A stretch of 64,000 nt of DNA, taken from positions 1,193,036 through 1,257,035 of the forward strand of contig NC_057752.1 of NCBI RefSeq assembly GCF_004010195.1, in the 5' to 3' direction. The stretch comes from Chiloscyllium plagiosum (Eukaryota). Position numbers and translations under genes: made by a program. Of the stretch, positions 3,205 through 30,009 are shown in pieces. The first letter of the stretch is position 1; the number at the start of each line of letters is the position of its first letter. The notes beneath the pieces were generated by a model that had not been told where the DNA came from, made no database searches, and saw only the letters and a list, made by a program, of their open reading frames with translations.

Positions 3205-3565
3205 GAAAATACTTGCATTTATATAGCTTTTGACATCTCAAACAGCTAATGAGGTACTTTTGAAGTTAAGTTCCTGTTGCAAGATAGGAAATGCAGTGGT
3301 CAGTCTGTGCTCAGCAAGTTCCTAGGAACAGCAATGTGAGAACAACCAGGTAGGCTGCCGTTTTGTGATCTCAATTGAAGGGTGAATGTTGAACAGCACA
3401 TCAAGGATAATTCCCCCATTCCTCTTTGAAAAAGTGCCACACAATCTTTAGCGTTTGCCAAAGCCAACAGTTGTGTCCTCAGTTGAGCTCAAGCTCCAGA
3501 GTGGGATTTGAACTTTGGCCTTATGGTTTGGAACTAAGAGTGCTACCAACCAAGTCACAGCTGAC
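3205..3565 (-). mobile_element. Ancient SINE (Deu/SacSINE1-like), degenerate
   Basis: Tail acttgcatttatatagc; similar to 1736-2210. Confidence 0.45.
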
Positions 3566-3619
3566 TCTCAGAGAAGAAGGGAGAAGGGTTAGGGAGGGAG
3601 TTCTGAGATTCTGATCCAG

Positions 3620-4870
3620 CAACACTGGCAATATATTTCCAAGTCAGGATGGTGAGTGGCTTGGAAGGGAACTTGCAGGGGGTGGTGTTCCCATGTATCT
3701 GCTGCCCTTGTCATTTGAGATGGAAGTGGTCATGGGTTTAGAAGGTGCTATCTGAGGAGCTTTGATGAGTTGGTGCACAGCATCTTGTATATGGTACACA
3801 CTGCTACTACTTAGCATCAGGGAGTGCATGCTGAAGGTGGGTGCTGAGGCCCCAGTCAAATGGGTTGCCTTATCTTGAATATTGGCGTGGTATCAATGTA
3901 CATTGCCAGGCAAGTGGAGAGCATTTCATCACACTCCTGACCTGTGCCTTGTAGATAGGCACTGAGCAGTCAGGACATGATTTACTCACCATAGTGTTCC
4001 TAGCCTCTGACCTGTTCTGTAGTCTTGGTATTTGTATAGCTGGCCAATTGTGACCACTGGGACCACTAGTTAATGGTGAGGGATGCAGCAATAGTTAAAA
4101 GTTAAGGAAAGATGATTGGATTCTCTGCTGTTGGAGATGCCAATGGAGAATTCCTTTGCCTGGCACTTGTGTGGTGTGAATATTAATTGCCAGTTGTCAG
4201 CTCAAACCTGGATATTGTCCAGAATTGCTGTGAATGGAAATGAACCATTTCATTATCTGAATTGAATTTGGAACTCAATACTGTACAGCCCTTGGTGTAC
4301 ATCCTGACTTCTGACCATATGATAGAGGGAAAGTCATTGATGAAGCTGATGAAAATGGTTGGGCCATGGACACTATCCTGGAGGAACTCCTGCAGCGATG
4401 TCCTGGAGCCGAGATGACTGACCTCCAACAACCACAACATCTTCCTATGTGTCAGGTATGACTCCAACCAGCGGAGAGTTTGACCTCTGATACCCATTGA
4501 TTCCAGTTTTGCTAGGGCTCCTTGATGCCACACTCAATCGAATGCAGCCTTGATGTCAAGGGCTGTCACTCTCCTCTCCCCTCCCCTCTGGAATTCAGCT
4601 CTTCATGGTCCATGTTTGAACCAAGGCTGTAATGAGGTCAGGAGCTGAGTGATCCTGGTGGAACCCAAACTGGCTGTCACTGAGCAGGTTATTGCTGAGC
4701 AGGTGCTGCTTGATAGCACTGTGGATGGCACCTTCCATCACTTTACTGATGATCAAGAGTAGACTGATGGGGCCCTAATTAGTTTGATTTGTCCTGCTTT
4801 TTGTGCATAGGGTATACCTGGGCAATTTTCCACATTGTTGAATAGATGGCAGTGTTGTCGCTGCACTAGA
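3620..4870 (-). mobile_element. CR1-group LINE, reverse transcriptase remnant
   Basis: Minus ORF 4183-4533: WHQGALAKLESMGIRGQTLRWLESYL and (S)VHGPTIFISFINDFP, which are RT motifs, frameshifted. Confidence 0.8.
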
Positions 4871-15019: not shown

Positions 15020-17503
15020 CAATAGACAATAGGTGCAGGAGTAGGCCATTCTGCCCTTCGAGCCTGCACCACCATTCAATATGATCATGGCTGATCATCC
15101 TTAATCAGTATCCTGTTCCTGCCTTATCTCCATAACCCTTGATTCCACTATCCNNNNNNNNNNNNNNNNNNNNNNNNNNNNNNNNNNNNNNNNNNNNNNN
15201 NNNNNNNNNNNNNNNNNNNNNNNNNNNNNNNNNNNNNNNNNNNNNNNNNNNNNNNNNNNNNNNNNNNNNNNNNNNNNNNNNNNNNNNNNNNNNNNNNNNN
15301 NNNNNNNNNNNNNNNNNNNNNNNNNNNNNNNNNNNNNNNNNNNNNNNNNNNNNNNNNNNNNNNNNNNNNNNNNNNNNNNNNNNNNNNNNNNNNNNNNNNN
15401 NNNNNNNNNNNNNNNNNNNNNNNNNNNNNNNNNNNNNNNNNNNNNNNNNNNNNNNNNNNNNNNNNNNNNNNNNNNNNNNNNNNNNNNNNNNNNNNNNNNN
15501 NNNNNNNNNNNNNNNNNNNNNNNNNNNNNNNNNNNNNNNNNNNCAGATCTCTTTGTACTGCCCCTTTACATAAATTGATTCCATTTAGGGAGTAATCTGC
15601 CTTCCTGTTCTTGCCACCAAAGTGGATAACCATACATTTATCCATATTAAACTGCATCTGCCATGCATCGGACCACCTAACCTGTCCAGGTCACCCTGTA
15701 ATCTCCTAACATCCTCCTCACATTTCACCCTGCCACCCAGCTTAGTGTCATCAGCAAATTTGCTAATACCATCTTCTATATCATTAATATATATTGTAAA
15801 AAGCTGCGGTCCCAGCACTGATCCCTGCGGTACCCCACTGGTCACTGCCTGCCGTTCCGAAATGGAGCCATTTATCACTACTCTGTTTCCTGTCAGCCAA
15901 CCAACTTTCAATCCAAGTCAGTACTTTGCCCCCAATACCATGCGCCCTCACTTTTCTCACTAACCTTCTATGTGGGACTTTATCAAAAGCTTTCTGAAAG
16001 TCCAGGTATACTACATCTACTGGATCTCTCTTGTCCATCTTCAGAGTTACATCCTCCAAAAATTCCAGAAGATTAGTCAAGCATGATTTCCCCTTCATAA
16101 ATCCATGCTGACTCCGACCTATCCTGTTACTACTATCCAGATGTGTCATAATTTCATCCTTTATAATAGACTCCAGCATCTTTCCCACCACTGAGGTCAG
16201 ACCAACTGATCTATAATTTCCTGCTTTCTCTCTCCCACCCTTCTTAAAAAGTGGTACAATATTAGCCACCTCCAATCCGCAGGAACTGATCCCGAATCTA
16301 TCGAACTCTGGAAAATAATCACCAACGCATCCACAATTTCTCGAGCCACCTCCTTCAGTACTCTGGGATGTAGACCATCAGGTCCTGGAGACTTATCAAC
16401 CTTCAGACCTAACAGTCTCTCCAACACCAATTCCTGGCAAATATAAATTCCCTTCATTTCAGGTCCTTCAGCCACTGTTACCTCAGGGAGATTGCTTGTG
16501 TCTTCCCCAGTGAACACAGATCTGAAGTACCAATTCAATTCTTCTGCCATTTCTTTGTTCCCCATAATATATTCCCCTGTTTCTGTCTTCAAGGGCCCAA
16601 TTTTAGTCTTAACCATCTTTTTGCCTTTCACATACCTAAAAAAAACTTTTACTATCCTCCTTTATATTATTGATGGAAATGTGTTGCTGGAAAAGCGCAG
16701 CAGGTCAGGCAGCATCTAGGGAACAGGAGAATCGACGTTTAGGGCATTAGCCCAATGCCTGAAACATCGATTCTCCTGTTCCCTAGATGCTGCCTGACCT
16801 GCTGCGCTTTTCCAGCAACACATTTCCATCTCTGATCTCCAGCATCTGCNNNNNNNNNNNNNNNNNNNNNNNNNNNNNNNNNNNNNNNNNNNNNNNNNNN
16901 NNNNNNNNNNNNNNNNNNNNNNNNNNNNNNNNNNNNNNNNNNNNNNNNNNNNNNNNNNNNNNNNNNNNNNNNNNNNNNNNNNNNNNNNNNNNNNNNNNNN
17001 NNNNNNNNNNNNNNNNNNNNNNNNNNNNNNNNNNNNNNNNNNNNNNNNNNNNNNNNNNNNNNNNNNNNNNNNNNNNNNNNNNNNNNNNNNNNNNNNNNNN
17101 NNNNNNNNNNNNNNNNNNNNNNNNNNNNNNNNNNNNNNNNNNNNNNNNNNNNNNNNNNNNNNNNNNNNNNNNNNNNNNNNNNNNNNNNNNNNNNNTCCCT
17201 TACCAACATGGCCACCCCACCCCCTCTGCCCGTCAGTCTGTCCTTACGATAGCACGTGTAGCCTTGAATATTCATTTCCCAGGCCCTGTCCACTTGAAGC
17301 CACAGCTCAGTTATCCCCACAATATCGTACCTGCCAATTTCCAAAAGAGCCTCAAGCTCATCCATCTTATTTCTAATGCTTCGTGCATTCATGTATAGTA
17401 TTTTTAATTTATTATTGCCCTCACCCTTCCCATCAACTCCTAATTCACTCAACCTTCCAGCATGATCCCTTTTTGAGTTTTCTGCTTCATTGATACATGA
17501 CAT
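15020..17503 (-). mobile_element. CR1 LINE ORF2 (EN + RT), relatively young, broken by two gaps and a Penelope hairpin
   Basis: [57 protein letters not shown]. Confidence 0.95.
16672..16849. mobile_element. Penelope-like terminal sequence forming a 77-bp-arm inverted repeat
   Basis: 16672-16748 is the reverse complement of 16754-16830 with ~3 mismatches. Confidence 0.85.
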
Positions 17504-18300: not shown

Positions 18301-19368
18301 AGCACCATTATCCAAGGGGTTGATAGGTGAAACAAAATCAGCATAATCTTCAAATCAGCGCAATCCACACATTATTACCATCACACTCAAGGAGAAGAGG
18401 AACAAGATGGAGGTAGCAGTTTCATAGATGAAGGCTGTCATGTCAGACAGGAGTACAATTGGCCTCTGACATCCATAATATGCTGGCCTGATGGTAGAAG
18501 CACAAACCTCAATTATCTAGAGACTGAGCAATTTGGGGCATTGTTCAACATGGGATCATTGATCTGGAAAGGACTCCAACTCAGAAAGTTAATCTCATGG
18601 ATGTATATATGCTGTTCTCAAAAATTGAGAGCCAAGTGTCTACCATCAGTGATCCAAGGAGAGTACAGATGGACTAATGAAGATTATGTTTCTTGACTCC
18701 ATGGCCCTCTGAACCAAAGGCAAGATAGATACCACTGAACCCAGGTGACATGTATGTGTGGCATACAGCCATGGCCACAGGCCAGTCACTGAGGCATTCC
18801 TTGCCCTGAGACTGGCTGATTCTTCCACTGTTGCCTCTACACAATCTGAAGATCCACTGGTGGATAAGCCATGTCCAGTAGTGGCACTGGTTTGGGAAGC
18901 ACACAGCTAAATGTATGTACTCAGAAGATACAATGCGCACAGTTACAGAGAAAGAGTCCACAAAATACATACATCAGACAAATATCGACTTGTGTTAATT
19001 AAACCTGTGGCTATCACCATTTTTTTTGTGTCCTATTTATCAGGTGGATTGCTGATTGGACACAGGCTATCTCCACTAATTTGGAAATAAAATTTAGAGT
19101 TACTGCACTCTGCCAGATTCAATGAAAATGTTTCAGTTGTGATATGAGACATATGCGATTGCTGTTGCCAGTCCAAGCAATGAGCCTGCTCTGCTCAGGC
19201 CCTGCCTATTTCACAGTCTTACCTTTTTTCAGTAGCATTACCTGTGTCTCTCAAGGTTTGTGTCGCAGAAATGTAGAGATGAGGTTAAAATCCAATCAGC
19301 CATGATCTTATTGAATAGTGGAACAGGCTCAAAGGGTGAGTGGCCTACTCTTGGTCCTTGTTTGACTA

Positions 19369-19464
19369 TGATTGGAACCAGGTGGATCTTGTAGACTATG
19401 AGATCCTTAATTGGGGTTGTTAACCTGGACCAATCAGGAAGGCTGTCCAATAGTAACAGGGGAT
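19369..19464 (+). mobile_element. Putative LTR 5' part (U3-like) of a Gypsy-type element
   Basis: ATTGG/CCAAT boxes; ends in TAACAGGGGAT, the same motif that begins the LTR-like segment at 24129. Confidence 0.45.
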
Positions 19465-19550
19465 CCCCCTTCACCATTTGATCACGCAGTATTACCCTTT
19501 GATGTGAAGGGCACTACTTGTCACTGGCCACTTGGGTGTTTGCCTATCTT
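19465..19550 (+). mobile_element. Tx1-family 3' UTR fragment (copy A)
   Basis: Matches 22543-22630. Confidence 0.85.
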
Positions 19551-19603
19551 GAGAATTGGATCAGTGTGTGTGCACACGTGCAAGGACTCTCCTCCTTGAA
19601 GGG

Positions 19604-22600
19604 GACTCCAGGTCGAGCATCTCCTCTCAAACTCCCCGATCCTGGATTTTCGCCTCTTTGTCGACCCCCTCGCGGGGCGTATGAAGAGAAGAAGGCCGTG
19701 CTCCGGGACCTGCAGCTCGTCGGGGCTCGGGGCGCGTACGTGAGGTCGCGGATCCAGCTCCTCCAGGACCTGGACCGCGGCTCCCCCTTCTACTCGCTGG
19801 AAAAAAGGTGTGGCACCCGTCAGCAGCTCCTTGTGCTGCTGGCCGACGACGGGTCCCTCGTCTCGGATCCGGAGGGGATCAGGGCCCACATCCGAAACTA
19901 TTACACGGCTCTGTTCTCTCCGGATCCATCCAGCGAGGATGCTCGCAGAGTTCTGTGGGAGGACCTGCCGCAGCTCAGCCCGGAGGACGCCGGAAGGCTC
20001 GACGCTCCCGTCACTTTAGAGGAGCTGACCGGCGCCCTCGACCGGCTCTCGAGGGGCAAAACCCCGGGGCTGGACGGGCTGACTGTGGAGTTCTTCAGGG
20101 CGTTCTGGGACGTCCTGGGGAGTGACTACGCACAGGTCCTGGGGGAGTGTCTAAATGCCGGAGAGTTGCGCCTTTCTTGGCGCAGGGCGGTCATCGTCCT
20201 GCTGCCAAAGGAGGGGGGGGAGCCTTCGTTCCTTGCAGAACTGGCATCCGGTTTCCCTCCTCAGCACTGACTGACTACAAAATCTTCACCAGGGTGTTGT
20301 CTTCTCGCCTGGCCTCCGTGCTGGCCCACATGATTCACCCGGACCAGTCCTATACGGTCCCGGGCCGGAGGATACACGACCACGTCCACCTGGTCCGGGA
20401 CCTGATCCATTTCTGTCGACGGGCTGGTCTGCCGAGCGCCTTCCTGTCTCTCGACCAGGAGAAGGTGTTCGACAGGGTCGATCACGAGTACCTGCTCGGG
20501 ACTCTGCGGGCATTCGGGTTCGGGACGCAATTCGTCGCCCAGATCCGACTTTGCGGCGGCGTACAAGAGTGTCTGGTTAAAGTTAACGGGTCCCTGACGG
20601 CGCGCCTTCACTTCGGGAGAGGAGTGCGTCCACGCTGCCCCCTGTCCGGCCAGCTGTATTCCCTGTGCGTGGAGCCTTTCCTGCACCTCTTGCGGAGGTG
20701 GTTGTCGGGGCTGGTTCTGCGCGGCGCGGGCACAGAGGTGGTCCTCCCGGCCAACGCCGATGACTTGCTCCTCACTTTCACCGACCCGGCTGACCTGGGG
20801 AGGATGCGCGAGTGCCAGGCTGTGTACTCAGCAGCGTCCTCCGCCAGGATCAACTGGGCCAAATGTCCCAGACTACTGGTCAGTCCGTGGCGGGTGGACT
20901 CTCTGCCGGAGGAGTTACGGGGGTTCAGCTGGAGTACCACACATCTCCTCTACATCGGGGTCTACCTCAGCCCGGCTGAGGAATCCTGGCAGGAGCTGGA
21001 GGCCAAGGTCTTGGCTCGCCTAGGCCGCTGGACAGGACTGCTCCGAGTGCTATCTTACAGGAGTCGAGTGCTGGTCATAAACCAGCTGGTGGCCGCCATG
21101 CTGTGGTACCGGCTGGTCACCTTTGGTCCCTCCTCCTGGCTTTGTCGCTGACATCCAGAGAACGTTGGTCGACTTCTTCTGGGACAAAAAGATGCACTGG
21201 GTCGCCGCGCAGGTTCTGAGTTTCCCTATTGAGGGCGGTCAGTCGCTGGTGTGCGTCCGCACCCAGGTCGCAACATTCCGCCTTCAGACCTTGCAGCGAT
21301 ACCTTTACGTCGAGCCTCCTCCTAGGTGGTGCGCCCTGGCGACATATTTTTTCCGCCAGGTGCGTAACCTCAACTACGACACGCAGCTCCTGTTCGTCGA
21401 CTGTGAAGGTTTGGAGGTCGCCCTCAAGACGCTGCCTGTCTTTTACCAGGACCTGATCACTGTCTGGAACATGGTCGAATCGCGCCGCGCCTACCCTCCG
21501 GCAGGAGTAGCGGCTGTCGTCAGGAATCTGCACCTCTGTACTCGCAGGTTCGAGTGGCTGTCGGAGGGGAGGGCCATGGCGGCGAGGGTGACCAGGGTCA
21601 GGGACGTGCTGGGGGCCTGGGCTGGACGCTGCTGCAGGACATAGCGGGCAGGGTAGCGGTAGACGTCCGGTACGTGGCCACCGCCATCCGACGCCTTAAA
21701 ATGGCAGTGCTCGGACCCGACGTGCATCAGTTGGAGGACGCTCAGGTGTGCGGTGGGATCCCGTCCGTGTTCACCCCAGCCCGGACGGAATTTCACATTG
21801 GCCCCAAGGTCCCGTACTTCCCGCGGGAGAATGTGCCCCACAACCTGAGCCGCGTCCGGAATTTTAATTTTGTTCCCTTCCAGGGTAAAAAGGAGGGCCC
21901 TGTATAGACTGCTGCTGCACACCGTCCACCTCTTCTCCCTCATCCACCGTCCGGACACGCCTTGGCGTGCCCATTTTCCACCGGGCGGTGGGGATCCCCA
22001 GTGGAGGGCTCTCTACGTGGGAGTCCTCCCCCTTTCTCTCGGGGATCTGGGGTGGAGGGTGCTGCATGCAGCAGTCCCCTGCAACCGCAGATTGCGGTGG
22101 TTCACGGACTCCCAGCCCAACTGCTTGTTCTGTGGCGCTGTGGAGTCCGTGGACCACGTATATATTGGGTGTGGGCGTTTGCACTCTCCTTGATTTTCTC
22201 AAAAACCTTCTCCTCTGCTTTTGGTTGCACTTCAGTCCCACGCTCCTGATCTTCGGGCACCTTGTACGGAGGAGGGAGGGCAGGTCTGAAGACCTCCTAG
22301 TGGGTCTACTCCTGGGCCTGGCCAAACTGGCCATCAACAGGTCGAGGCAGCGGGCCGTGGAGGAGGTCGTTAAGGCCGACTGCCTGCCCCTCTTCTGCGG
22401 TTACGTTAGAGCCCGGGTGTCCTTGGAGAAAGAGCACGCGGTGTCCACCAACACCCTGGAGTTGTTCAGGGAGAGGTGGGCGCCGCAGGGAGTGGAGTGT
22501 ATTATTTCCCCCTCCAACTCTATTTTGATTTAATCCCTGCCCTCCCCTTCACTGTTTGATCACACAGCACTGACCTTTGATGTGAAGGACACTGCTTGTC

Positions 22601-22773
22601 ACTGGCCACTTGGGTGTTTTCCTATCTTCCTGGTGGTGGAAATGAATAAAGATTTGTGCACTTTGTGTGTCTCACTATGTCTCACACCTGCACACACACA
22701 TCATGGGTGTTGGGGGGAAAAATAAGCACTACCGCAGTTAGGCGGTAGCGTGGGGTTTAAGTTTTAAAAAAAA
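19604..22773 (+). mobile_element. Tx1-clade non-LTR retrotransposon, 5'-truncated, ORF2 frameshifted (copy B)
   Basis: ARGAYVRSR, KTPGLDGLTVEFF, IHPDQSYTVPGR, FLSLDQEKVFDRVDH, GRGVR..CPLSG, C-terminal CLFCGAVESVDHVYIGC zinc knuckle; closely resembles Xenopus Tx1 ORF2; stop at 22533; 3' UTR and A tail; YADD is mutated to NADD. Confidence 0.95.
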
Positions 22774-22829
22774 AGAAAGAACAGGTGTGCCAGAGATTCT
22801 GTTCACCCTAAAAAAATGTAACAGGGGAT

Positions 22830-23071
22830 TTCCCCCCACCCTTCACTGTTTGATTACGCAGCATTAGCCTTTGATGTGAAGTGCACTGCTTGTCACTGGC
22901 CACTTGGGTGTTTCCTTTCTTCCTGGTGGTGGAAATTGAATAAAGGTTTGTACACCTTGTGTCTCTCACTGTGTCTCACACCTGCACACACACACCATGG
23001 GTGCTGGGGAAAAAATAAGCACTACCGCACTTAGGTGGTAGTGTGGGGGTTAAAAGAAAAAAAAAAAAAAA
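22830..23071 (+). mobile_element. Tx1-family 3' end (copy C)
   Basis: Repeat of the 3' UTR with an A tail. Confidence 0.9.
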
Positions 23072-23159
23072 TGGGGGNNNNNNNNNNNNNNNNNNNNNNN
23101 NNNNNNNNNNNNNNNNNNNNNNNNNNNNNNNNNNNNNNNNNNNNNNNNNNNNNNNNNNN

Positions 23160-23470
23160 GCCACAGGGAGTGGAGTGCATTATTTCCCCCTCCAATTCTA
23201 TTTTGATTTAAACCCTGCCCTCCCCTTCACTGTTTGATCACACAGCATTGCCCTTTGATGTGAAGGGCACTGCTTGTCACTGGTCACTTGGGTGTTTCCT
23301 TTCTTCCTGGTGGTGGGAATTTGAATAAAGATTCGTGCACCTTGTGTCTTTCACTGTGTCTCACACCCGCACACACACATGGGTGCTGGGGAAGAATAAG
23401 CACTACTGCAGTTAGGCAGTAGTAAAAAAGAAGAAAAAAATTTTAAAAATAAAGAGGAAGGAAAAAAATA
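23160..23470 (+). mobile_element. Tx1-family 3' end (copy D; 5' end lies in the gap)
   Basis: End of ORF2, 3' UTR and A-rich tail. Confidence 0.9.
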
Positions 23471-23471
23471 A

Positions 23472-23705
23472 AAACATTAGTGTCAGACATTCTCTCAATC
23501 TGAGAGCTGGCTGTGAGGGAGCTGGACCAGGGTCAAGGACTCCCCATGCATAAATAGAGGGTAACTTGGTGACGGGATACTGGCTTCTGTGGAGTTATTT
23601 CAGTGGGGATGAGAGTAAAGCATGTTCCTTTAGAAATTACTTGCAATAGTCATCTTTAGTTGGGGTAAGCATTAGCTATTACTTGGGAAGCTTGACTCAT
23701 TCAAC
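23472..23705 (+). mobile_element. Gypsy-type LTR 3' part, PBS-like site and degenerate gag start
   Basis: Ends ...TTATTTCA (23602), then g-TGG; 23676-23705 encodes LLLGKLDSFN, resembling Gypsy (Mag-like) Gag N-termini; related to 22779-22810, 19551-19592 and 24205-24243. Confidence 0.55.
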
Positions 23706-23739
23706 AAGAAAAAAAAGGAGAAAAAAAGTAATAGGGGAT

Positions 23740-24120
23740 CAGGTCCAGGCAGCGGGCCGTGGAGGGGGTCATTAGGGCCAACTGCCTGCCCCTCATCCGC
23801 GGTTACATTAGAGCCCGGGTGTCCACCAACACCCTTGAGTTGTTCAGGGAGAGGTGGGCGCCGCGTGGAGTGTATCATTTCCCCCTCCAACTCTATTTTG
23901 ATTTAATCCCTGCTCTCCCCTTCACTGTTTGATCACACAGCATTGCCCTTTGATGTGAAGGGCACTTGGCCACTTGGGTGTTTTCTTTTCTTCCTGGTGG
24001 TGGAAATTGGACAAAGATTTGTACACCTTGTGTCTTTCACCGTATCTCTCACCTGCACACGCAACATGGGTGCTGGGGAAAAATTAACATTACCGCAGTT
24101 AGGGGAATAGGAAAAGACAA
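23740..24120 (+). mobile_element. Tx1-family 5'-truncated copy E
   Basis: Matches 22338-22745 with small deletions; flanked by TAATAGGGGAT and TAACAGGGGAT. Confidence 0.9.
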
Positions 24121-24128
24121 CAAGGTAT

Positions 24129-24243
24129 TAACAGGGGATTTAGGATCTCCTCAGTTCAGGGGACTGACTCCGAGTTGGCTGGCCACAGCCAGTGTACTGT
24201 GCACAAATAAATAAATGGGGACTTAGTGACAGGATACCAGCCA
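24129..24243 (+). mobile_element. Related LTR 3' part (second variant)
   Basis: aataaatggggacttagtgacaggataccagcc is similar to 23550-23586. Confidence 0.5.
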
Positions 24244-24624
24244 CATTTGCTTGGCTGATTTCCAAAAGGTGCTTATATTGCTCAGGAAGCATATAGATAC
24301 ATATAAATGCCAGGATGCTCTAGCAAAAGAGTAGTATCTCCCTTTTTACCATTGCAGGCAATAACAAAGAACAACTACTTGAACAGCACAGAAGATTCCT
24401 TCAATGTTGTCACTTCCTGTAGTATCACCTTCCCACCAATCTTATATCCAAACCCCATTGCCATTACTTATCACACCTTTTCTTGTCCTCCCCAATCTTG
24501 AAGTTCTCCTGCACGATGCCTCAGCTGTTAGAGTATCTTTCCATTGTTCAAAAAATTGGCAAATACTTGGACTGTGAATAGTTCTGGTATCCATATTCTA
24601 AAAAGGATACATATAAGCACTTGG

Positions 24625-26616: not shown

Positions 26617-28005
26617 ATTTAGATTTTATTGTCACGTGTACTCAAAGACAGAAGTAAAGGAGTACAGTGAAAAATGTATAATGTTGCTACACATGGTACC
26701 TAGGTACAAAAAAACCCTAGGTATACAGTAAGAGAAATGAGAGTTATAAAGTTAAGCATTACTACATAGAATAGTAGAAAAATAAAGAAAAAGGTAACAG
26801 TTTACATTAAAGTTCAACAGCCTTGAGTCCACCACTTACTCGCTTTCCAGGGAGATCTCAGCTATCTGTTCTCGACACCGCCACCGATACTGTCGCTGCT
26901 GCTGCCTCTATGATCTTTCCCAGTGCCTCAGTAACATGCCCAGGCAGGATCCACTCACATGCTGAGCCGAGACCAGCTGGCACACTGCCGCGACACCAGG
27001 CTGAGAGCCACCAAGAGACCAGGCCGGGACCCACCGAGAGACCAGGCCGGGACCCACCGAGAGACCAGGCCGGGAACCGCTGAGAGATCAGGCCGGGAAC
27101 TGCTAAGAGATCAGGCCGGGACCCGCCATGAGACCAGGCCGGGACCCGCCGAGAGACCAGGCCGGGACCCGCCGAGAGACCAGGCCGGGACCCGCCGAGA
27201 GACCAGGCCAGGACCCGCCGAGAGACCAGGCCGGGACCCGCCGAGAGACCAGGCTGGGACCCGCCGAGAGACCAGGCCGGGACCCGCCGAGAGACCAGGC
27301 CGGGACCCGGCGAGAGACCAGGCTGGGACCCGCCGAGAGACCAGGCCGGGAACCACCGAGAGACCAGGCCGGGACCCGCTGAGAGACCAGGCCGGGACCC
27401 GCCACGTGACCAGGCTGGGACCCGCTGAGAGACCAGGCTGGGAACCACCGAGAGACCAGGCCAGGACCCGCTGAGAGACCAGGCTGGGAACCACCGAGAG
27501 ACCAGGCCGGGACCCGCCGAGAGACCAGGCCGGGACCTGCTGAGAGACCAGGCTGGGAACCACCGAGAGACCAGGCCAGGACCTGCTGAGAGACCAGGCT
27601 GAGAACCAAGAGACCAGATTGGGACCCGCCTAGAGGCCAGGCCAGGACTCACTGAGAGACCAGGATGGGACGTGCAGAGAGACCAGGCTGAGACCCACTG
27701 AGAGACCAAGCTTGGACCTGCTGAGCGACCAGGCCAGGACCCGCCTAGAGACCAAGCTTGGACCTGCCGAGCGACCAGGCCGGGAGACCAAGCTTGGACC
27801 TGCCGAGCGACCTGGCCGGGAGACCAAGCTTGGACCTGCTGAGCGACCAGGCCGGGACCCTTCAAGGGGGAGGTGAACACTAAGAGGGGGAGAACACCAG
27901 AAAGGAAGAAGAAAAAGAGAAATAGGGGAAAAAAAGAGAAGGAAATGAGAAATAACAGGAGATGAGATCTGGTTGGAGTGACCTCCTCCACTGTGATCTC
28001 TAACA
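26617..28005 (-). mobile_element. Putative non-autonomous Rex1/Babar-tailed element carrying a minisatellite
   Basis: Minus-strand end ttttcactgtactc...tacacgtgacaataaaatctaaatc; pyrimidine-rich 5' part; no RT coding sequence. Confidence 0.45.
27010..27860. repeat. GC-rich 23-bp minisatellite (GAGAGACCAGGCCGGGACCCGCC), ~37 units, ending in three 36-bp derived units
   Basis: Period of 23 read directly (e.g. 27151, 27174, 27197). Confidence 0.95.
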
Positions 28006-28930: not shown

Positions 28931-28959
28931 TACAATCTCCGAATGAAGTTCTGATGAAA

Positions 28960-29484
28960 GACCTCCTCGTGGGTCTGCTCCTGGGCCTGGCCAAACTGGC
29001 CATCAACAGGTCCAGGCAGCGGGCCGTGGAGGGGGTCGTTAGGGCCGACTGCCTGCCCCTCTTCCGCGGTTACGTTAGAGCCCGGGTGTCCTTGGAGAAG
29101 GAGCACGCGGTGTCCACCAACACCCTGGAGTTGTTCAGGGAGAGGTGGGCGCCGCAGGGAGTGGAGTGCATTATTTCTCCCTCAAACTCTATTTTGATTT
29201 AGTCCCTACCCTCCCCTTCACTGTTTTGATCACACAGCACTGTCCCTTGCTGTGAAGGGCAGTGTTTGTCACTGGCCACCCGGGTGTTTTCCTATCTTCC
29301 TGGTGGTGGAAATTGAATAAAGATTCGTGCACTTTGTGTCTTTCACTGTGTCTCACCCCTGCACACACACACCATGGGTGCTGGGGATAAAATAAGCACT
29401 ACCGCATTTAGGTGGTAGTGTGGGGATTAAAAGAAAAAAAAAATAAACCGCAAGCAAGGGGACGGGCTGTCCTAGAGAGAAAAA
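28960..29484 (+). mobile_element. Tx1-family 5'-truncated copy F with 18-bp TSD
   Basis: DLLVGLLLGLAKLAINRSRQ...ISPSNSILI*; AATGAAGTTCTGATGAAA at 28942-28959 and 29485-29502. Confidence 0.93.
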
Positions 29485-30009
29485 AATGAAGTTCTGATGA
29501 AATAGCCACTCCGTTTCACTTTGAAATGCGCAACAAATGCAGTGACTCTCAGGAAATGAGCAAAGAAAATGACATTGATGGCACTTGTCTAATGAAGTAA
29601 GATACATTTCATAAATCGGTAAATCATTCAACTCCTCTTTGGGCAAACGCAAACTAGTTCAGGTTGGAGTCATGGTCGGCATGGACTAGTTGGATCGGAG
29701 GGTCTGTTTCCGTGCTGTATGACTCTGACTTTATACCTCAAAGTAAAATCTAGTTTGACCCTCAACCTTGCAACCAACTACCTCCTACGGCTTGTGTTCC
29801 TCCCCGGCTGTGTCTGGCGATCCAGTCCGTGTCTTGATCATTGCCTTTCCCCCAGTTTGTGGCAGTGACCTGCGTCCCTTTCCTGTGACTGCTGACAATG
29901 ATCGAAGCTGCGGGAGAGCAACCGTTTTTGCAGCATTTAGTGTTTGCAGATTTAAACGTATGAGGTGCTTTCCCATTCAGCTAGAAGGCTACTCCTGTGG
30001 CTTTCCAGT

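Follow-up and report, generated by a model that had tools for sequence, protein, structure and literature searches.

A 64,000-nt stretch of the Chiloscyllium plagiosum genome (NC_057752.1, positions 1,193,036 to 1,257,035 of the forward strand; referred to here as the window and numbered from its first base) contains an array in which one Gypsy-type long terminal repeat (LTR) of ~226 bp is interrupted at a TATA-like site by same-strand insertions of a Tx1 long interspersed nuclear element (LINE). In the explanation favoured here, to which we give a probability of about 0.85, a Tx1-clade LINE would have entered a single LTR four times at its TATA-like box. Its endonuclease would likely nick AT|AAACAGG-type sites in preference to others, and each insertion would duplicate the site and so leave a new target. 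The insertions have a preferred site and a single orientation, their target-site duplications (TSDs) of 10–17 bp start within the TATA-like box, they form arrays arranged head to tail, and the full-length copies have 5' heads derived from the LTR.

Anatomy of the array and identity of its parts

The array is enclosed by the two halves of the host LTR. The 5' half (~19363–19464, plus strand) carries a CCAAT-like box and a degenerate TATA-like site, and terminates in the first copy of the target; positions 19369–19464 match positions 6–106 of a natural empty LTR, L157, at 83 of 96 sites. Its start at 19363 was judged by eye, and colinear empty LTR copies exist elsewhere. The 3' half (24126–24262, plus strand) opens with the last target copy (24129–24139) and matches L157 positions 93–225 (115/133), the two halves overlapping because the target is duplicated. 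This pairing was missed by an earlier, sequence-only reading of the window, which had described five Tx1 copies (A to E) piled up at an 11-bp motif. The Tx1 pieces all lie on one strand, at 19466–19550, 19667–22770, 22839–23053, 23160–23422 and 23740–24103, with a further copy (F) at 28958–29430.

Insertion 1 follows target copy 1 (TAACAGGGGAT, 19454–19464, plus strand). Its 5' end (19465–19602, plus strand) consists of a piece resembling the 3' untranslated region (UTR; 19466–19550, the former copy A) joined to a head of LTR origin and to the first part of the Tx1 5'UTR (19551–19602), a build found in 14 of 30 full-length 5' ends. Next comes a short, twin-priming-like inverted piece of open reading frame 2 (ORF2; 19604–19674, minus strand), with most of the 5'UTR, ORF1 and the endonuclease region deleted between it and the head. 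The body (copy B, 19667–22778, plus strand) holds a broken ORF2 with reverse transcriptase (RT), the 3'UTR and an A-rich tail. Since the head build is common to other copies, copy A, the first spacer, the inverted piece and copy B are therefore one deleted element, which reduces the five copies to four insertions. The first spacer (19551–19592) does align to natural LTR positions 137–180 (32/41), but its reading as host LTR was rejected, the same 5' end being built into other full-length copies.

Downstream of copy B lies a likely 3' transduction (22779–22817, plus strand) made up of LTR positions 107–136 and a second poly(A), followed by target copy 2 (22819–22829, plus strand). Insertion 2 (copy C, 22830–23077, plus strand) has 3'UTR and tail, with a possible degenerate TSD at the edge of the assembly gap (23078–23159), an 82-base N run, already remarked on in the sequence-only reading, in which copy D has its 5' junction and further units may be hidden. 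Insertion 3 (copy D, 23160–23467, plus strand) consists of the ORF2 end, 3'UTR and tail, and is continued by another likely 3' transduction (23468–23727, plus strand) comprising LTR positions 102–237, a TGG resembling a primer-binding site (PBS), a gag start and a second poly(A). A target copy (TAATAGGGGAT, 23729–23739, plus strand) precedes insertion 4 (copy E, 23740–24125, plus strand), again with ORF2 end, 3'UTR and tail. Copy F (28939–29500, plus strand) stands at an unrelated site, as had been noticed, and has its own TSD of at least 16 bp (AATGAAGTTCTGATGA).

The motif TAAYAGGGGAT does recur on the plus strand at 19454, 22819, 23729 and 24129. When one mismatch is allowed, the whole window contains five occurrences against a shuffle mean of 2.3, and 10 of 100 shuffles reached five; this is not significant, and the count by itself was rejected as evidence. 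The weight of the motif lies in the position of the four exact occurrences at junctions, not in their number.

On sequence grounds the inserted element is a Tx1-clade LINE, with an RT and a predicted N-terminal endonuclease of apurinic/apyrimidinic (APE) type, and by identity its nearest named relative is Tx1. The RT fragment in the window matches RVT_1 (E = 5e-21), and a sister copy, L101, has a naturally open frame of 916 aa that matches RVT_1 (E = 8e-33) and, under the curated cut-off, Exo_endo_phos (E = 0.001); homologues of this frame carry PF03372 and PF00078. The L101 frame is 51% identical over 87% to the 149 kDa TX1 protein of Xenopus (YTX2_XENLA), the only named element among the 120 protein matches of the sister ORF2 frame, and is about 50–60% identical to turtle proteins and, at partial coverage, 64–66% identical to ray and shark proteins. 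An ORF1 zinc knuckle in L121 matches zf-CCHC below cut-off (E = 0.0014; 19.1 bits against 20.8). Poly(A) tail, 5' truncation and TSD are all present, as in Tx1-clade LINEs. With L115 (oriented 3328–4559) and most long copies in view, a direct repeat of approximately 615 bp lies around the ORF1/ORF2 boundary of the reference copy L115, and is probably a duplication private to it.

The suspicion that the spacers are LTR sequence was well founded. Spacer 22780–22809 aligns to natural LTR positions 107–136 (23/30) and spacer 23468–23602 to positions 102–237 (113/134). With 23472–23705 as query, 4644 candidates were obtained, the matches revealing a TG...CA repeat of about 226–237 bp, after which come a PBS-like TGGCGA.GAG and the beginning of gag. 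Of four elements fetched, three (L127, L128 and L130) have two near-complete LTRs about 3.7–4.5 kb apart, 80–84% alike, with TGGCGA.GAG after the 5' LTR, while in the fourth the second LTR is partial; a purine tract precedes the 3' LTR in L127 and L130. The domain order is RVT_1 (weak), Integrase_H2C2 (E = 7e-7) and rve_3, and the best PDB matches of the RT (4ol8, 7q5b) are Ty3-G Gag-Pol. Judged by its paired LTRs, putative PBS and polypurine tract, and RT before integrase, the target is a Ty3/Gypsy LTR retrotransposon; its PBS and gag start resemble those of the Mag clade of Gypsy, to which it may belong. In the window, the Gag-like LLLGKLDSF is in frame at 23676–23702, and the CA and TGG expected at the LTR end are both present, not adjoining as had been described but with one intervening base (CA-G-TGG).

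Site preference across the genome

Two sets of Tx1 copies were examined for their flanks: 39 non-self 3'UTR matches (from the best 40 of 2241 candidates), and 36 of 39 non-self ORF2 matches (from the best 40 of 477), three matches on short contigs being left out. In the first, the outer 5' flank was the 5' half of the LTR, ending at the site, in 20 cases, non-LTR in 16 and a gap in three; in the second it was LTR in 10, non-LTR in 13 and unresolved in 13. Pooled, 30 of 59 resolved insertions are at the LTR site (20/36 and 10/23), with 16 more unreadable (30/75 overall), so that the flanks are not random. When 14 of the 16 non-LTR flanks of the first set were rechecked for LTR, none scored above shuffles. 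The fetched flanks, 482 kb in all, contain only two unsplit LTRs, and a chance landing within about 10 bases is therefore negligible. In the reverse direction, 29 non-self LTRs chosen by their 5' 100 bp included five with the Tx1 family at the site and four with other inserts there. The 20 LTR-hosted loci of the first set contain 146 3'UTR pieces in sense and none in antisense orientation. Automatic calling gave TSDs of 10–17 bp in 12 of 18 single insertions and none in the other six; those called start within the TATA-like box at the LTR site and in an A-run when off-target. The proposal that the family targets an LTR thus stands as a strong, not a strict, preference.

The exact target was drawn too narrowly at first. 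The LTR falls into two subfamilies, the site being TATAAACAGGAG in subfamily a and AAACAGGGGAT in subfamily b, and the host LTR of the window belongs to b. The sequence TAACAGGGGAT, proposed as the general target, is a subfamily-b or local variant, and most loci read AAACAGGAG. That the motif might be the 3' end of the Tx1 element itself was rejected, since it is absent after the tail at the non-LTR insertions L005, L021, L142 and L148 and at copy F.

Under the favoured explanation, target-primed reverse transcription would start at a bottom-strand nick in the T-run opposite AAAC, and the TSD of each insertion would renew the target site; the earlier suggestion that each TSD regenerates the target is supported. 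Several points weigh against this explanation. Both sets of copies are best-scoring matches, neither random draws nor a census, and the flanks were classified by reading. No TSD around the host LTR itself is evident in the window sequence. Outside the LTR lie 29 of the 59 resolved insertions, at other A-rich sites with TSDs starting in A-runs, and at L135 an array of more than 10 pieces was built up at a non-LTR site; the determinant may therefore be a short motif and not the LTR itself.

An L1-like endonuclease that recognises only a short A-rich motif (AT|AAACAGG) would make the LTR a hot spot through its many motif copies and perhaps open promoter chromatin, with no adaptation of the LINE to the LTR. 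Besides the non-LTR insertions, this is favoured by the arrays at L135 and L012, which grow after poly(A)+AAACAGG junctions without LTR upstream, and by the use of the same site by other retro-sequences. However, chance alone would place such a 9-mer at many thousand positions in 3.56 Gb, and still half of the resolved Tx1 copies are in the LTR; degenerate sites are still used in LTR context (L008, L014 and L023); and full-length copies bear LTR-derived heads (see later). We regard a motif acting alone as rather unlikely.

Other inserts at the same LTR site were seen at L196, L187, L192 and L209: at L196 the head of a tRNA-like short interspersed nuclear element (SINE), recognised by eye; at L192 an A-rich tract alone, with a duplication; and two unclassified inserts of about 170–250 bp. 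At L136 and L138, two-LTR elements have an array in the 3' LTR and an empty 5' LTR. A second repeat family (L106:630–1180; L211–L230) is younger (95–98% identity; 2250 candidates) and has an A-rich tail; the LTR 5' half, cut at the same site, is upstream of it at 7 of 20 loci, and it is often intermixed in Tx1 arrays. A tblastn search for Tx1 ORF2 upstream of this family gave matches only over neighbouring Tx1 units, and the family may represent a SINE or else the 3' part of a different LINE. A short transduced piece of copy F matches it (18/19), and the donor of copy F therefore likely lay in a mixed array.

Probable transductions, shared junctions and LTR-derived heads

The spacers at 22779–22810 and 23468–23705 had been taken for remnants of the host LTR left between insertions, a part of the sequence-only reading that did not hold. 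Both belong to subfamily a, the host to subfamily b; a Tx1 tail precedes each of them, and a second poly(A) closes each before the local TSD. They are therefore best read as 3' transductions, which, apart from the first spacer, is likely what the spacers are. Read-through past a weak poly(A) signal would carry LTR pieces and neighbouring units from donor arrays. The seeming lack of a TSD at copy B is then accounted for, its pair being 19454/22819, beyond the short transduced LTR piece and the second poly(A). The long spacer (23468–23727) is 92% identical to a single locus, L032 (C24), the other 38 non-self matches being 77–83% identical. It counts against a transduction that in the present assembly the LTR of this presumed donor (L032/L150) is without Tx1; the true source would then be an unseen sister or an allele since lost.

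In many other arrays the same 5' junction recurs from unit to unit while the tails differ. Among same-start units of 18 arrays, the ratio of mismatches to background is 0.43 (95% 0.30–0.53) in the first 30 nt, 0.69–0.81 over 30–200 nt and 0.95–1.06 beyond, while different-start pairs give 0.92 in the first 30 nt. This gradient suggests that same-start units copied their 5' junction from a neighbouring unit: new cDNA would often anneal to homologous sequence just downstream of the nick, either a resident unit or the LTR. The arrays could instead come mainly from DNA-level tandem duplication, or local re-insertion of same-locus transcripts, after one insertion, which would fit the repetition of one truncation point and junction in many arrays (eight units at L136, 12 at L133) and the arrays at L140 and L143 that are 96–99% alike along their length. 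But tails and 3' ends vary from unit to unit, and past the first 200 nt divergence is as high as between unrelated copies. The copies in the window have different starts and are 88–92% identical over the shared 3'UTR (copy A and the outside copy F, 82%), the same as between copies of different arrays, and pure tandem duplication was rejected for this array; as a general origin we consider it improbable. A short-read misassembly around the gap has in its favour the N run, the 101,977 contigs of the assembly and the fact that no contig from four sequencing runs spans the array, but is highly implausible given that units differ by about 10%, that a single-copy-depth contig from run X8 crosses the junction of copy E tail, TSD and LTR (24057–24169) with no differences, and that the same anatomy occurs at the gap-free loci L093, L115, L136, L144 and L146. 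Among the 15 joints listed from these contigs (616 further), there was no empty-site joint. Very large arrays, with 15–24 3'UTR pieces within 10 kb, are found at L133, L144 and L140, and at L133 a compound junction (LTR piece, A-tract and second TSD) recurs with a shared start.

Thirty full-length 5' ends, the query included, were chosen by their Tx1-specific 5'UTR from among 344 candidates. All 30 have LTR-like sequence directly upstream, ending near LTR position 148–168. In 16 it extends from either the target motif or the 5' half of the LTR, and in the other 14 a 3'UTR piece ending at 22616–22628 is joined to LTR positions ~152–168, as in the window. The 3'UTR piece gives the element a direct repeat at both ends; its length varies in L236, L245, L260, L137 and L099, up to about 630 bp. 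An element with a direct repeat at both ends resembles TART. L115 has a subfamily-a head inside a subfamily-b LTR, and the heads of L105 and L112, from LTR positions 134 and 128, are at non-LTR sites, so that the element itself probably carries the head. These two starts are near an initiator-like TTCACTC at position 129, 26 nt after TATAAA at 103, and suggest that full-length copies are transcribed from the host LTR promoter via the LTR-derived head. The intact CCAAT/TATA half left upstream would drive this transcription. In a comparison bearing on local copying of the head, the own 3' LTR was the best match of the head in two of five cases, one of them out of register.

A wider proposal, held tentatively and at slightly worse than even odds, is that a vertebrate LINE parasitises a retrotransposon promoter. 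It would land in the TATA box, carry the initiator/R region of the LTR as its 5' end, and close its 5' junction by way of that homology or of a resident unit; each full-length insertion would then restore the distance between TATA and initiator and be transcribed from the host LTR, the Gypsy element would be cut off from its own promoter, and a second, younger repeat family would share the site.

Elsewhere in the window, a GC-rich minisatellite (26950–27860) has a 23-bp unit in about 35 copies, changing into 36-bp units, and a 77-bp near-perfect inverted repeat (16672–16830) beside an assembly gap (16850–17195) may be an assembly fold-back.

Relation to known systems

Insertion of Tx1 elements into LTRs is, as a principle, already published, and the present family is a further case, not the novelty that the sequence-only reading implied. 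The crocodilian families Tx1-8_Crp and Tx1-4_AMi are likewise LTR-preferring (Kojima 2015, PMC4494074), and the target-specificity criterion used there, more than 20% of flanks in one repeat type, is exceeded here (30/59 resolved, 30/75 in all). The passages on these families name neither LTR type nor position nor arrays, and the hosts differ, crocodilians there and a cartilaginous fish here, as the protein matches also suggest; the head of Tx1-4_AMi is derived from U1, whereas that of the present family is derived from the LTR (PMC4494074). The Tx1-Mar and SINEU families are similar in that several of them share one transposon target, with adjoining insertions and added 5' sequence that includes target-like extensions (SINEU-2B), and differ in their target, Mariner-N4_AMi, and their heads derived from small nuclear RNA, as described in the same source. 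Tx1 of Xenopus laevis inserts into the piggyBac-type Tx1D (as cited in PMC4494074). It too targets another transposon, and its ORF2 is 51% identical to that of the present family, but its target is a DNA transposon and not an LTR promoter. The TSD of Tx1L is 23 bp, unlike the 10–17 bp found here.

Homology-driven recombination of L1 cDNA intermediates was reportedly described by Gilbert et al. in 2005. It is documented in human cell reporters (PMC13526784), where nascent LINE cDNA joins homologous sequence much as we infer for the shared 5' junctions, the present case being drawn from a divergence gradient in germline arrays and not from reporters. Within the coverage of a literature search that lay outside most subscription journals and Repbase Reports, there was no report of a Tx1 in sharks or rays that targets the TATA box of an LTR, nor of an LTR-derived head or of this family.

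The head and the junction-copying are the features most worth following. The window is one of many such loci in the genome, and the family is a further vertebrate example, in high copy number, of a LINE aimed at another element's promoter. Its arrays probably record 3' transductions and neighbour-templated 5' junctions, and its many natural insertion sites allow the specificity of an APE-type endonuclease to be read, a matter of interest in site-directed gene insertion. If the promoter is indeed borrowed, the family would offer a testable case in which one transposon hijacks another and likely disables it.

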